DNA of 8,330 nucleotides from a virus (Duplodnaviria; Heunggongvirae; Uroviricota; Caudoviricetes): the IMG/VR virus record IMGVR_UViG_2537562231_000028; one strand, given 5' to 3'. Each line of letters opens with the position of its first letter. Positions within the stretch are counted from its first letter, which is position 1. The notes under the pieces were generated by a model. It was not told the origin of the DNA. It did not search any database and saw only the letters and a list, made by a program, of their open reading frames with translations. A program made the translations under genes and the position numbers. Shown here in pieces: positions 1,946 to 5,545 of this stretch.

Positions 1946-2327
1946 CGGGTATCACAGATATGACAAACACGAAAAAAGCGGCCCCGATATGGAGCCGCCT
2001 TTCTGAACAATTAACCCGCTGCGCCTTATGTGTATGTGATCCCAAACATAAGCACGGGGATGATAGCCGCTATCAGGCTGGTGGGCAATGCAATCAGTCT
2101 GGTTCAGTTCGTTGCCATAACTGCGAAGCTCTCTCCTTTGATGAGTATTCTTTAAGGTACTTCTCAAGGGCAAAAGAACACGGCGCGAATCGTTCTGATT
2201 CATGCTCTTTCTTTCTGCGTCGTCTTTTTCGTGCAGGTGATGTTTTTTTGGTTGATTCTTCGTTGGTCATTGTGTGCGCCTGTAAAGCAATGCGCCGTAG
2301 TACCTCACACCACGGCGCTGGTGATGG

Positions 2328-2507
2328 TTACTCCTGCTCTTTGGCCTTGCGGCGCTGGCGGCGTTTGATTTCGCCTTTAACGGCAGTAACTATAAATTGC
2401 GCTTTGCTTTCACCTTCATCTAAATTTTTTTCTAAGTCTGCAACAACATCATGCGGGAATCTGGCATTTAACTGTTGCGACTTATTATTTGTTGAACCTG
2501 TTGCCAT
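2328..2507 (-). CDS. Small ribbon-helix-helix-like DNA-binding protein (59 aa), candidate satellite repressor or autoregulator
   Basis: Internal ATG at 2505-2507 (minus strand) preceded by GAGAGGA with about 7 nt spacing; stop TAA at 2328-2330. MATGSTNNKSQQLNARFPHDVVADLEKNLDEGESKAQFIVTAVKGEIKRRQRRKAKEQE reads as beta strand (QLNARFP), helix, loop, helix, then a basic tail. The N-terminal extension from the TTG at 2672 has no RBS and looks like non-protein sequence. RHH fold is inferred by eye. Confidence 0.55.
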   Translation of the reverse strand: MATGSTNNKSQQLNARFPHDVVADLEKNLDEGESKAQFIVTAVKGEIKRRQRRKAKEQE

Positions 2508-2690
2508 TACTGAATCCTCTCTAAGTTGGTGCGATTCAGTATACACAAAAAAATTCAGAGAAAAAGGCTTGAAGTGCGATTCACTTGCTGATAGGTTAAA
2601 AACAGATGGTGCGATGCACCAAATAACAACGCCCCGCAGTGCGGGAACACATACGGGGCGTCTAACCAACAACGTAAACTAGGAGCCGTT
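2508..2690. promoter_or_regulatory. Divergent control region between the RHH gene and the rightward operon
   Basis: GTGCGATTCA at 2529-2538 and 2574-2583, variant GTGCGATGCA at 2609-2618. On the minus strand a TATACT -10-like hexamer sits directly upstream of the first repeat copy. GC-rich dyad CGCCCCG ... CGGGGCG (2630-2660) with an inner CCCGCA-G-TGCGGG palindrome and no downstream T-run. Confidence 0.5.
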
Positions 2691-2888
2691 ATGGTTGCCG
2701 TAAATCATATACCACACCTTGTACACACACAAACGGCCTTTGTGTGGCGTTTTCTGGCCCTGAGTGCCGGAGAATCTCAAATCATCCACGTAACCGCCTG
2801 GACGGAACGCGAAGCGCGTAGCCGTTGCCCGTCCGGTTGTGTTGCTGTATTCGCCGCCCGTATTCGTCAGGGGGTGTGCCATGCTTAA
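2691..2888 (+). CDS. Small protein (65 aa), possibly Icd-like (host cell division inhibitor family seen in P4-like elements); tentative
   Basis: AGGAG at 2681-2685, 5 nt before the ATG. VWRFLALSAGESQIIHVTAWTEREARSRC...VAVFAARI resembles, from memory, the W-F-A ... TE-EAR ... FAAR pattern of Icd-like proteins. No alignment was possible. Confidence 0.5.
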   Translation: MVAVNHIPHLVHTQTAFVWRFLALSAGESQIIHVTAWTEREARSRCPSGCVAVFAARIRQGVCHA

Positions 2889-3066
2889 AACCTTCCGTGT
2901 ATTTGCCAGCGCTGTTAACCCACTAGGCCACACAATTGGTATCGCTCAGAATGTGAAGGCTGTTAATGTTCAGACGGCTATTGCTGCGGTGAGAAGCGAA
3001 TCATCAGAATATGGCTTATCACAAGTCATTATTTCAGCAGTGTATGAATTAAAAGAGGTGCATTAA
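2881..3066 (+). CDS. Hypothetical small protein (61 aa), possible distant paralog of the upstream gene
   Basis: ATG 2881 preceded by AGGGGG with about 8 nt spacing and overlapping the upstream stop (ATGCTTAA). MLKTFRVFASAVNPLGHTIGIAQNVKAVNVQTAIAAVRSE loosely echoes the upstream F-R/W-F-A ... A-x-TE/Q pattern. Confidence 0.45.
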   Translation: MLKTFRVFASAVNPLGHTIGIAQNVKAVNVQTAIAAVRSESSEYGLSQVIISAVYELKEVH

Positions 3067-3257
3067 TGAAGGAAATTACATTACACGAAGCCGCTGAACG
3101 TGCGCACCAGACAGAAATTATTTGCCGCCTTCTTGAGGTATACCCTGATAAATTAAATGATGGTGATATATCCGCATTAGCTGGCCTTCTGGCAAAACTG
3201 TCAGGAAGTGTTGCGCTGTGGTTAATTGATGAGAGAGCCGAACGCTATGAAAAATAA
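3066..3257 (+). CDS. Hypothetical small protein (63 aa) in an AT-rich cassette
   Basis: ATG overlaps the upstream stop (TAATG); AAAGAGGTG upstream. About 43% GC by hand count against about 56% for the gene upstream. No family recognised. Confidence 0.5.
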   Translation: MKEITLHEAAERAHQTEIICRLLEVYPDKLNDGDISALAGLLAKLSGSVALWLIDERAERYEK

Positions 3258-3494: not shown

Positions 3495-3794
3495 ATGAAA
3501 CTTAAATATCCTGGCTTAACTGACAGCGGCAAAACTCGCACTAAATTCATGCGCGGGGATATTTACCGCGACCAGTACGGCGGCACGGTAATGATTAAGG
3601 GCGTGGAGGAACGGCGCGTAACCTACCATCGTGAAGGCTACGAATATGATTGCGTGATGCCTGTTTATCAGTTCCGGCGTGATTTTTCTCTGGTACAGGC
3701 AGCGCCCCGCAGTAAACCAACCAGCAGGGAGAAAGCACGCGCCAATATTCAGGAAATAAAAAAGATGCTTAACGTATTCAGGGGTAAAAAATGA
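3495..3794 (+). CDS. Hypothetical protein (99 aa) translationally coupled to the primase gene
   Basis: ATG 3495 follows the upstream stop by 5 nt. Its stop overlaps the primase start (ATGA at 3791-3794). Basic C-terminal tail. No family recognised. Confidence 0.5.
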   Translation: MKLKYPGLTDSGKTRTKFMRGDIYRDQYGGTVMIKGVEERRVTYHREGYEYDCVMPVYQFRRDFSLVQAAPRSKPTSREKARANIQEIKKMLNVFRGKK

Positions 3795-5545
3795 AACTGG
3801 CACCGAACGTAAAAAAACAGCCACGCGGAATAAAACACAAAGACACAGAGGTGATTATTTTCGCGGGTAGTGATGCGTGGGCACATGCAAAACAGTGGCA
3901 GGAGCAGGACGGCCCCGCATCCGGCGATAATGTGCCTCCTGTGTGGCTTGGGGAGCAGCAGTTATCAGAACTGGATAAGCTGCAAATTGTGCCGGAAGGC
4001 AGAAAATCCGTGCGCATATTCAGGGCCGGACATCTTGCACCAGTAATGATCAAGGCGATTGGTCAAAAGCTGGCGGCGGCTGGTGTACAGGATGCAAATT
4101 TTTATCCTGAGGGTATGCACGGCAAGGAGGTGCAGAACTGGCGCGAATACCTGGCCCGTGAACGCCAGAATCTTTCTGATGGTCTGGTCATTGAGCTTCC
4201 GGTAAAGCAAAAGGCGCAACTTTCGCAGATGGCGGACAGTGAGCGCGCGCAGCTGCTTGCCGATCGCTTTGATGGCGTTTGCGTACATCCTGAAAGTGAA
4301 ATTGTTCACGTATGGCGCGGCGGGGTATGGTGTCCGGTCAGCACAATGGAACTTAGCCGCGAAATGGTGGCGATCTATTCAGAGCACAGGGCCACTTTCA
4401 GCAAGCGCGTAATCAATAACGCCGTGGAAGCGTTAAAAGTTATTGCCGAACCAATGGGCGAGCCGTCCGGCGATTTGCTGCCGTTCGCCAATGGTGCGCT
4501 TGACCTGAAAACGGGGGAATTTTCCCCGCACACGCCGGAGAACTGGATCACCACGCACAACGGCATTGAGTACACGCCACCAGCACCAGGGGAGAATATC
4601 CGCGACAACGCGCCAAACTTTCATAAATGGCTTGAGCACGCAGCCGGAAAAGACCCGCGCAAGATGATGCGTATATGTGCCGCGCTGTACATGATTATGG
4701 CGAACCGGTACGACTGGCAGATGTTTATTGAGGCCACCGGAGACGGCGGGAGCGGTAAAAGTACATTCACACACATAGCCAGCCTTCTGGCAGGGAAACA
4801 GAACACGGTAAGCGCTGAAATGACATCGCTTGATGATGCTGGTGGACGTGCGCAGGTTGTCGGGAGTCGTCTTATCGTCCTGGCTGACCAGCCGAAATAT
4901 ACAGGCGAAGGAACGGGCATCAAGAAAATCACGGGCGGCGACCCCGTGGAAATTAACCCGAAATATGAAAAGCGTTTCACGGCGGTAATCAGGGCGGTGG
5001 TGCTGGCGACCAACAACAACCCGATGATATTCACCGAACGGGCCGGAGGTGTGGCACGTCGTCGCGTGATTTTCCGTTTCGACAATATTGTTAGTGAGGC
5101 CGAAAAAGACAGGGAGCTACCGGAAAAAATTGCGGCTGAAATCCCCGTCATTATCCGCCGCTTGCTGGCGAACTTTACCGACCCTGAAAAGGCACGGGCT
5201 TTACTCATTGAGCAGCGTGACGGTGATGAAGCTCTGGCAATAAAGCAACAGACGGATCCGGTTATTGAGTTTTGCCAGTTCCTGAATTTTCTGGAGGAAG
5301 CGCGCGGCCTGATGATGGGGGGCGGTGGCGATTCAGTGAAGTACACGACCAGGAACAGCCTTTACCGCGTCTATCTGGCGTTTATGGCATACGCAGGCAG
5401 GAGCAAACCGCTAAACGTGGCTGAGTTCAGCAAGGCCATGAAGCCAGCGGCGAAAGTTTACGGGCATGAATATATTACGCGAAAAGTTAAGGGAGTAACG
5501 CAGACCAACGCAATTACAACAGACGATTGCGACGCGTTTTTATAA
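3791..5545 (+). CDS. Satellite replication protein: primase/helicase with a D5-like (SF3-type) P-loop NTPase domain
   Basis: 584 aa. Walker A GDGGSGKST; downstream hydrophobic strand plus acidic residue (RLIVLADQP) consistent with Walker B. GGGG 6 nt before the ATG. Position immediately upstream of an iteron cluster matches Pri-Rep of PICIs and alpha of P4. Confidence 0.88.
   Translation: MKLAPNVKKQPRGIKHKDTEVIIFAGSDAWAHAKQWQEQDGPASGDNVPPVWLGEQQLSELDKLQIVPEGRKSVRIFRAGHLAPVMIKAIGQKLAAAGVQDANFYPEGMHGKEVQNWREYLARERQNLSDGLVIELPVKQKAQLSQMADSERAQLLADRFDGVCVHPESEIVHVWRGGVWCPVSTMELSREMVAIYSEHRATFSKRVINNAVEALKVIAEPMGEPSGDLLPFANGALDLKTGEFSPHTPENWITTHNGIEYTPPAPGENIRDNAPNFHKWLEHAAGKDPRKMMRICAALYMIMANRYDWQMFIEATGDGGSGKSTFTHIASLLAGKQNTVSAEMTSLDDAGGRAQVVGSRLIVLADQPKYTGEGTGIKKITGGDPVEINPKYEKRFTAVIRAVVLATNNNPMIFTERAGGVARRRVIFRFDNIVSEAEKDRELPEKIAAEIPVIIRRLLANFTDPEKARALLIEQRDGDEALAIKQQTDPVIEFCQFLNFLEEARGLMMGGGGDSVKYTTRNSLYRVYLAFMAYAGRSKPLNVAEFSKAMKPAAKVYGHEYITRKVKGVTQTNAITTDDCDAFL

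Follow-up and report, generated by a model that had tools for sequence, protein, structure and literature searches.

A candidate repressor with three operators and a predicted antisense RNA in the control region of a Gram-negative phage-inducible chromosomal island

The viral DNA stretch analysed here (IMG/VR record IMGVR_UViG_2537562231_000028), which comprises 8,330 nt and is called the window throughout, is an E. coli phage satellite that belongs to the EcCICFT073 type of Gram-negative phage-inducible chromosomal islands (PICIs). Its 183-bp intergenic gap at 2508-2690 separates a leftward gene for a 59-aa protein of the YlcI/YnfO family from a rightward gene for an Icd-like protein (Table 1), and we consider it probable that this gap is an immunity-type control region with two outward promoters placed back to back. 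Three short repeats within it are, with considerable confidence from sequence comparison, the cognate operators of a diversifying small repressor. A GC-rich dyad next to the Icd-like gene is probably the terminator of a predicted cis-antisense RNA and not a switch element. Taken together, a repressor acting on three operators and an antisense RNA that ends at the hairpin form the reading that we favour, albeit with some reserve. The analysis computed where these elements lie and how far they are conserved, how the operator core varies with the protein, and the covariation and strand bias of the hairpin; the comparison set consisted of 42 loci from Enterobacterales that encode relatives of the 59-aa protein, with Citrobacter, Morganella, Proteus, Pectobacterium, Dickeya, Xenorhabdus, Yersinia, Hafnia, Serratia and others among the genera.

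A 10-bp motif that recurs three times at spacings of 45 and 35 bp had been noticed in the original prediction, and the count bears it out. GTGCGATKCA is found three times, always on the plus strand, and has no further copy in the 8330 bases; the chance expectation is 0.06, and none of 200 shuffles gave three copies. The motif is confined to the same intergenic position across all loci fetched, including locus L049, which was added later. The three sites, named O1, O2 and O3, share the frame GTG-N5-CAC, and the orientation of O3 is inverted in most of the other specificity types described below. In the 12 loci, spread over six genera, whose protein carries the same beta-strand as that of the window (QQLNARF), the sites read GTGCGATTCA, and this holds also in loci with diverged intergenic sequence around them.

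The evidence that connects these sites to the neighbouring gene lies in the N5 core. Within a locus the three sites have one and the same core, which changes together with residues 11-17 of the protein, which are exactly the residues of a predicted beta-strand, while the flanking GTG/CAC and the promoter hexamers remain constant; about ten specificity types can be distinguished in this way across Enterobacterales (Table 2). In 41 of 42 loci O1 keeps a distance of 22 nt to the ylcI ATG, and it agrees in its core with the O2 and O3 of its own locus. Because three separate sites have been replaced in concert inside otherwise conserved promoter elements, they point to a reader that is shared by O1, O2 and O3.

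Table 2. Predicted beta-strand of the YlcI/YnfO-family protein and the operator core found with it
Beta-strand	N5 core	Occurrence
QQLNARF	CGATT	12 loci, six genera
QMTT(V/I)R(I/V)	TAT(G/T)T	19 loci
QQIVSRV	GCAT(T/G)	
LQ(V/L)SVRL	GTGTT	
QS(V/I)TVRV	TAAGA	
QLFTVRV / QFMTARV	TGT(A/T)T	
QKLQTRA	GAGT(A/C) / GAATC	
QKMQARV	GAGCA at O2 and O3; GGTGA at O1	
RQKTARV	GGAGT	
KALKARV	TGGCC / GACCC	L039
ALKARV	GGCCA at O2 and O3; GGGGA at O1	EcCICFT073

Exchanges of neighbouring modules indicate which protein this reader is likely to be. The window, which has a primase, and L049, which has a RepA-family helicase, encode the identical YlcI protein (WP_000190566.1) and carry the same three repeats. The RepA helicases of L049 and of an O157:H7 island (L045) are 95% identical, and L045 has an Arc-like ribbon-helix-helix (RHH) gene with GGTAATTACC palindromes instead. 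L044, in turn, combines the same repeats with a different integrase and a different AlpA. That the repeats follow the YlcI gene, and neither the replicase nor the AlpA/integrase module, strongly supports a YlcI-family protein as their probable reader. The concerted changes of core and beta-strand likewise support the earlier proposal that the repeats are targets of the RHH protein, with binding as the step that we infer.

A different assignment would have the repeats bound by AlpA, by a replicase at origin iterons similar to the type I iterons of phage P4, or by a helper or host protein, and would leave YlcI with some other task. The P4 iterons, TGTTCACC, which are bound by the P4 alpha protein, do resemble the right arm of the sites, and the RHH fold of YlcI is probable and not established. 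AlpA is, in addition, the only regulator that has been shown experimentally in these islands (PMC6092414). We nevertheless regard this assignment as highly improbable, since in about ten types the core follows the YlcI beta-strand, a number of specificities that a host or helper factor does not need, and since there are just three sites, placed on promoter elements and with O3 able to flip, which is unlike an iteron array. An origin-iteron reading, prompted by the P4 repeats, was dismissed on the ground that the repeats do not follow the replicase, and an AlpA-site reading because AlpA and integrase modules can differ where the repeats are the same.

Two observations on the loci just mentioned may be added. 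In phage P4 (L046) the resemblance concerns the origin iterons at 4314-4405 and the ..TTCACC of the operators' right arm; it was judged coincidental because the repeats do not follow the replicase. In L045 the place of the YlcI gene is taken by an unannotated gene at 3769-3942 on the minus strand for a 57-aa Arc-like protein (MSTPLEKRSPPYQMRLPEDF...; phrog_228, E 1.5e-6), which stands directly beside the same hairpin and Icd-like gene, with the palindromes at 3941-4000; RefSeq annotates a plus-strand 'Icd-like pseudogene' over it.

The leftward gene had been described as RHH-like, and this description stands as regards family and features. The protein matches the NCBIfam model NF041551 (YlcI/YnfO) over the whole profile with 63.3 bits against a cut-off of 30 (E 1.5e-17), and its RefSeq name is identical. 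After the predicted beta-strand at about residues 11-17 follow helix A, a G-E-S turn and helix B; the family alignment displays the variable stretch 11-17, R16-x-P18, a helix, a conserved G-E-S/T turn and a long helix, and the AlphaFold2 (AF2) monomer has an extended N-terminus and helices at 19-26 and 35-58 (pLDDT 69). Against P22 Arc, hhalign gave a probability of 44% with strand and helix A in register (Q/N/R/P aligned), and against Mnt a probability of 2%. Family members match CB_ParB_C and PSK_trans_fac weakly, and one remote member matches HicB above its cut-off; we take all three to be families of the RHH clan. The description does not extend to a significant match of the expected kind in other collections: Pfam gave no match for the window protein, the family profile found no PDB sequence at E up to 10, and Foldseek on the AF2 monomer returned matches of basic helix-loop-helix type, which are meaningless. 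Judged from these sequence features, an RHH fold is probable. In the published literature we found no paper that gives the YlcI/YnfO family a function.

The two promoters, P_L and P_R, and their start sites were placed by positional conservation and not by consensus strength. A TATACT -10-like element beside one copy of the motif had been pointed out before and is indeed there: AGTATA on the plus strand is TATACT on the minus strand and shares the last base of copy 1. This P_L hexamer is TATACT in 32 of 42 loci and of TAnnnT type in 39 (among them TATAAT in five, TATTCT in one and TATGCT in one), with two CATAnT variants, and it occupies the same position in all; in one intergenic alignment it is invariant, the first site being directly followed by GTATAC. 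For P_R, a TTGAnn hexamer followed after 17 or 18 bp by TAnnnT is present in 42/42 loci and at the same position in 40. The layout is fixed in the 42 loci, with O1 on the -10 and start of P_L, O2 in the spacer of P_R, and O3 at or just after the P_R -10 and start. All three would thus sit at repressing positions, which implies repression of the replication operon together with autorepression. The suggestion of autorepression made by the original prediction fits in that O1 overlaps the conserved -10 of ylcI.

Repression of the replication operon is not the only role that such sites could serve. YlcI might bind the repeats and merely fine-tune or activate the leftward unit, in the manner of Mnt or of a toxin-antitoxin-like autoregulator with the Icd-like protein as toxin, and AlpA would then govern induction entirely. 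In EcCICFT073, one of the islands with this module, AlpA overexpression alone is enough to set off excision and replication (PMC6092414). The annotation of Icd-like proteins is that of division inhibitors, and an RHH gene plus an antisense RNA resembles the layout of toxin-antitoxin and copy-control circuits. On the other side, O2 and O3 lie, in 42/42 loci, on the spacer and start of the sole recognisable promoter before the primase operon, a textbook position for repression, and we hold a mere fine-tuner to be clearly improbable.

The GC-rich dyad consists of outer arms, ACGCCCCG and CGGGGCGT, and an inner GTG/CAC pair. It had been described as a nested palindrome; the dyad itself is real, and the inner palindrome CCCGC/GCGGG is specific to the window, the conserved form being an interrupted outer stem plus an inner stem. 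The dyad is present in all 43 loci and with every specificity type, as well as in EcCICFT073 and beside the Arc-like gene of L045, and a covariance model (R1) finds the hairpin in L044, L045 and EcCICFT073, the latter two with 58 and 42 bits. Because it is kept in every specificity type and beside an Arc-like gene, the dyad is not part of repressor specificity. Its proposed role as a component of the switch was not borne out, given this constancy and the pattern of G·U pairs on the minus strand.

Compensatory changes affect both the outer stem (GCCCCG/CGGGGC, GCCCGG/CCGGGC, GCTCGG/CCGAGC) and the inner one (GTG/CAC, GTA/TAC, CCGGA/TCCGG). Read on the plus strand, 9/12 pairs have changes on both sides, and 88.8% of the cells are paired against 28-45% in slid controls; 0/500 shuffles match this. 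Over the 21 pairs of the extended structure, there are 80 G·U pairs if the minus strand is read and 3 if the plus strand is read, and 97.9% of cells are paired on the minus strand against 85.7% on the plus strand. The unpaired cells of the plus strand, spread over about ten different pairs, are almost all A·C, which equals G·U on the minus strand, and the main stem of the relatives is 99.6% paired on the minus strand. The 10-nt tail averages 4.9 T on the minus strand and 1.4 T on the plus strand, and a terminator scan of the window calls minus-strand intrinsic terminators, 2646-2632 and 2650-2629, with UUGUUAUUUG as the tail. The compensatory changes, the excess of G·U pairs and the T-rich tail on the minus strand argue that the structure has been selected in a leftward transcript.

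The transcript that we predict to end there would be about 78 nt long, would run from about 2697 to 2620, and would cover the ribosome-binding site and start codon of the Icd-like gene. At its 5' end lies a second hairpin whose loop presents an anti-Shine-Dalgarno CUCCU opposite the Shine-Dalgarno sequence of the Icd-like gene (2681-2685). In this helix, 4/5 pairs have changes on both sides (GTTA/TAAC, GATA/TATC, CATTA/TAATG), 97.3% of cells are paired, and 0/500 shuffles reach the observed covariation. Between the 5' hairpin and the terminator stands a conserved linker, the complement of TCTAACCA at 2661-2668 and single-stranded UGGUUAGA in the RNA, for which no complementary site was found elsewhere in the window. 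The proposed promoter, P_as, has a TAnnnT that is invariant in 30/30 aligned sequences, even though it falls in codons 5-6 of Icd-like proteins with differing N-termini; opposite its A there is always a T, in a third-codon position where changes would be synonymous. The hexamer lies 42-45 nt from the linker in the 35 correctly anchored sequences (33 related loci, EcCICFT073 and L045), for Icd-like ATG offsets of 29-32 and of 36 alike, and is hence fixed to the hairpin and not to the ATG.

These data bear on the possibility that the repeats are YlcI operators and that the hairpin, with no antisense RNA involved, acts in the leader of the rightward mRNA (on stability, processing or translation) or as a DNA cruciform or protein site. 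A leader hairpin on the plus strand was our first reading and was dropped after the G·U strand test. It can draw on the location of the hairpin within the predicted 5' leader of the Icd-like operon, on a plus-strand RNA that folds as well (minimum free energy -32 kcal/mol, with a z of only -1.7) and that is still 85.7-88.8% paired, and on an antisense promoter that is weak by consensus and inside a coding sequence. The excess of A·C over G·U on the plus strand, 80 against 3, is however unexpected for a plus-strand RNA or for a symmetric DNA site, the T-rich tail is confined to the minus strand, and the P_as hexamer is kept even at a synonymous site and at a held distance from the hairpin. A role in the leader or as a DNA site is therefore rather unlikely in our view, and the terminator of a leftward antisense RNA is preferred.

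Several points weigh against the combined reading of repressor and antisense RNA. Adjacency and co-inheritance of gene and sites mean that their association alone is not independent evidence. A simple sigma-70 consensus scan calls none of the three proposed promoters, and no -35 can be recognised for P_L. In 6/30 relatives just 2 of the 10 positions of the terminator tail are T, and Rfam yields no family match for the predicted RNA. Lastly, AlpA, and not a repressor, is the known master regulator of EcCICFT073 (PMC6092414).

Table 1. Coordinates of genes and predicted control elements in the window
Feature	Position	Strand	Remarks
ylcI gene	2328..2507	-	59-aa YlcI/YnfO-family protein, probable ribbon-helix-helix repressor
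Operator O1 (predicted)	2528..2540	.	GGTGCGATTCAGT; core 2529-2538; overlaps -10/start region of the leftward promoter
P_L -10 TATACT (predicted)	2538..2543	-	for ylcI; upstream tract A/T-rich
P_R -35 TTGAAG (predicted)	2569..2574	+	for the operon from the Icd-like gene to the primase
Operator O2 (predicted)	2573..2585	.	AGTGCGATTCACT; core 2574-2583; begins at the final base of the P_R -35 and fills the spacer
P_R -10 TAGGTT (predicted)	2592..2597	+	predicted start near 2604
Operator O3 (predicted)	2608..2620	.	GGTGCGATGCACC, near-perfect palindrome; core 2609-2618; about +5 to +17 of P_R
GC-rich dyad	2629..2661	.	outer arms 2629-2636 and 2654-2661; inner pair 2639-2641 and 2648-2650
Antisense RNA terminator (predicted)	2620..2661	-	stem 2661-2654 with 2636-2629; inner 2650-2648 with 2641-2639; tail UUGUUAUUUG from 2628-2620
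Antisense RNA body (predicted)	2661..2690	-	linker plus 5' hairpin (2671-2674 with 2687-2690)
Icd-like gene	2691..2888	+	first of the rightward operon, proposed antisense target; NCBIfam NF033153, E 5.8e-18
P_as (predicted)	2704..2732	-	-10 TATGAT (2709-2704), -35 TTGTGT (2732-2727), modest; start near 2697; within Icd-like codons 5-14
Rest of leftward unit	1972..2318	-	hairpin after ylcI (2318-2292), 58-aa ORF (2270-2094), strong terminator (2004-1972)

The window was assigned to the PICIs because its gene order equals the layout of Gram-negative PICIs. It comprises an integrase, a small open reading frame (ORF), an AlpA-like helix-turn-helix (HTH) gene, the leftward YlcI/YnfO-family gene, the Icd-like gene, three small ORFs, DUF4222, a D5/P4-type primase, small ORFs, terS, a small ORF and a capsid-like gene; integrase and AlpA-like HTH gene, primase, terS and capsid-like gene are thus found within 8.3 kb, adjoining a tRNA-Pro. 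EcCICFT073 (strain CFT073, 1377930-1388654) has the matching order of int, AlpA, leftward YlcI, Icd-like, DUF4222 and primase, and parts of 2328-2890 are matched in 1880/5426 complete E. coli genomes. Helper-phage induction and transfer have been documented only for EcCICFT073 and its relatives, and AlpA, which is induced by the helper, is both necessary and sufficient for EcCICFT073 induction; whether a repressor exists was called unclear (PMC6092414). C4/IsrK-type immunity RNAs have been noted in some Gram-negative PICIs, and a module of protein plus antisense RNA is not described there (PMC10111431). Our search of the published literature found no description of this module of YlcI, operators and antisense RNA.

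The mechanism that we infer, as regards binding, repression, transcription starts, the existence and action of the antisense RNA and the link to a helper phage, would run as follows. P_L would drive the YlcI/YnfO-family gene, and P_R the operon of the Icd-like gene, DUF4222 and the primase. The small YlcI-family protein, probably an RHH dimer, would bind three 13-bp GGTG-N5-CACC sites, the central N5 being read by the variable N-terminal beta-strand, which would give rise to about ten mutually distinct specificities. O2, which fills the P_R spacer, and O3, which covers the P_R start, would together shut the replication operon in the quiescent island, and occupancy of O1 over the -10 and +1 of P_L would limit YlcI's own synthesis. 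As a second lock, an antisense RNA of about 78 nt, whose leftward transcription would begin at a promoter in the first Icd-like codons and which is complementary to the Shine-Dalgarno sequence and start codon, would block translation of a leaky Icd-like message. The earlier idea of a master switch, by which the satellite would stay silent until a helper arrives, is plausible as a hypothesis and would have to be squared with the reported finding that AlpA is required and suffices for the induction of EcCICFT073 (PMC6092414), an element with the same module.

In its logic, this arrangement appears closest to immI of phage P22 (Mnt/Arc plus sar RNA) and to the CopG and RNAII of plasmid pMV158. 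P22 immI has the RHH repressors Mnt and Arc, the divergent promoters Pmnt and Pant, and the sar antisense RNA; there, as is proposed here, a small autoregulated RHH repressor gene is divergent from an operon, an operator lies over both promoters, and a short cis-antisense RNA, here a predicted one, covers a ribosome-binding site in the same operon. YlcI has, however, no detectable family-level sequence homology to Arc or Mnt, P22 has one operator where the window has three separate 13-bp sites, and the P22 operon encodes an antirepressor in a phage, whereas that of the satellite leads from the Icd-like gene to the primase. Copy control of pMV158 relies on the RHH repressor CopG and the countertranscript RNAII, and shares with the proposed circuit an autoregulated RHH repressor on a 13-bp pseudo-symmetric element as well as a short antisense RNA against the translation start of a replication operon. 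It differs in that copG is located in the operon of repB and is not divergent, in its single operator, in being a plasmid and not an integrated satellite, and in the lack of sequence similarity.

Other systems share single traits. In the immI of P1/P7 (c4 RNA-icd-ant) and in P4 immunity (CI RNA, kil/eta) a homologue of the Icd-like gene or of the P4 'cI ORF' is likewise the first gene of the controlled operon, and a small RNA is proposed to act on its translation start; P4 is moreover a satellite with an alpha-type primase. The Icd-like protein of the window matches PHROG families labelled 'transcriptional repressor', a label that is also on the cI/kil ORF of the P4 record, and from the matching label the P4 ORF presumably belongs to those families. 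C4 and CI RNAs, by contrast, arise by processing of the sense leader and act on that transcript in trans, whereas a cis-antisense RNA is predicted here, and P4 has no protein repressor at this position. At the gathering threshold Rfam gave no C4, CI or IsrK match in the window, and none in 2300-3100 at E up to 10 either; R1 found no match in P4, a blastn of 2600-2900 against phages found no homology to the P4 immunity leader, and the Rfam scan of L045 gave nothing relevant. With SymE/SymR and other type I toxin-antitoxin systems the predicted RNA shares the form of a cis-antisense RNA of about 77 nt over the 5' end of a small, potentially toxic ORF; the SymR match (RF01809; minus strand 2625-2696) is far below threshold, at 19.3 bits against a gathering value of 61 (E 0.55), and is an architectural resemblance only. 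Stl/Str of the SaPIs, which are Gram-positive PICIs, occupies the same place on the map between the integrase side and the replication operon, and the logic would be the same if the YlcI-family protein were the silencing repressor. Stl differs in that it is one of a group of larger HTH repressors inactivated by helper proteins. Gram-negative PICIs are reported to be induced via AlpA (PMC6092414).

Beyond the window, we tentatively propose that the YlcI/YnfO protein might be the silencing repressor of Gram-negative PICIs including EcCICFT073, with about ten immunity specificities similar to those of lambdoid repressors, and that a helper, directly or via AlpA, could overcome the lock of repressor and antisense RNA. 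If true, the 'activator-only' model of Gram-negative PICI induction would be incomplete. The control circuit would be a variation on a familiar type, in a class of elements for which no repressor has previously been described, and Gram-negative PICIs are widespread and move virulence and defence genes. The presence of the conserved module in EcCICFT073 offers a testable silencing mechanism, and islands might be classified by 'immunity types'. The module would further assign a function to the uncharacterised YlcI/YnfO family and could provide a natural set of orthogonal small repressor/operator pairs.

Some features of the surroundings complete the description. Recombination breakpoints among E. 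coli islands lie at the 3' end of ylcI (2329-2332) and just past O3 (at about 2620); therefore the block of repressor and operators moves as a cassette, apart from the int/alpA block and from the block of hairpin and icd. Downstream of ylcI, a basic 58-aa ORF (MTNEESTKKTSPARKRRRRKK...; 2094-2270, minus strand) matches phrog_21027 with E 5e-13; it is unannotated in the source strain, its counterpart is annotated in EcCICFT073, a homologue stands beside the Arc-like variant in L045, and it probably belongs to the leftward unit. The strong hairpin at 1972-2004, with 14 pairs, a T-run on the minus strand and a preceding A-run on the plus strand, lies directly after the alpA-like gene; it is the likely end of the leftward unit, and transcription of alpA may stop there too. 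Read-through from alpA was considered as a route of derepression and is unlikely, because this terminator follows alpA directly. An open frame of 240 aa at 1960-2682 on the plus strand, antisense to the 58-aa ORF and ylcI and with a CxxC...CxxC stretch, has no PHROG match and is probably a shadow ORF.

Three further tracts lie close to the predicted antisense RNA. The palindrome of O3 and its adjoining T-run (UGGUGCAUCGCACCA UCUGUUUUUA; 2598-2621, T-run 2598-2606) are terminator-like on the minus strand in the terminator scan and come directly after the main hairpin, and the operator DNA may also serve the predicted RNA as a reserve terminator. At 2712-2726 (plus strand CCCAAACTCGCC), codons for T-Q-T-R-P are near-invariant at synonymous positions in most relatives, from Xenorhabdus to Escherichia. 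This tract falls within the spacer of the predicted P_as, and because promoter spacers are not normally conserved, it may be under another nucleotide-level constraint or form a binding site. Finally, a terminator-like hairpin, CACACAAACGGCCTTTGTGTG followed by GCGTTTTCTG, is found on the plus strand at 2726-2746 inside the Icd-like gene and overlaps the P_as -35; it is apparently not conserved in other genera, and it could be an attenuator of the rightward operon.

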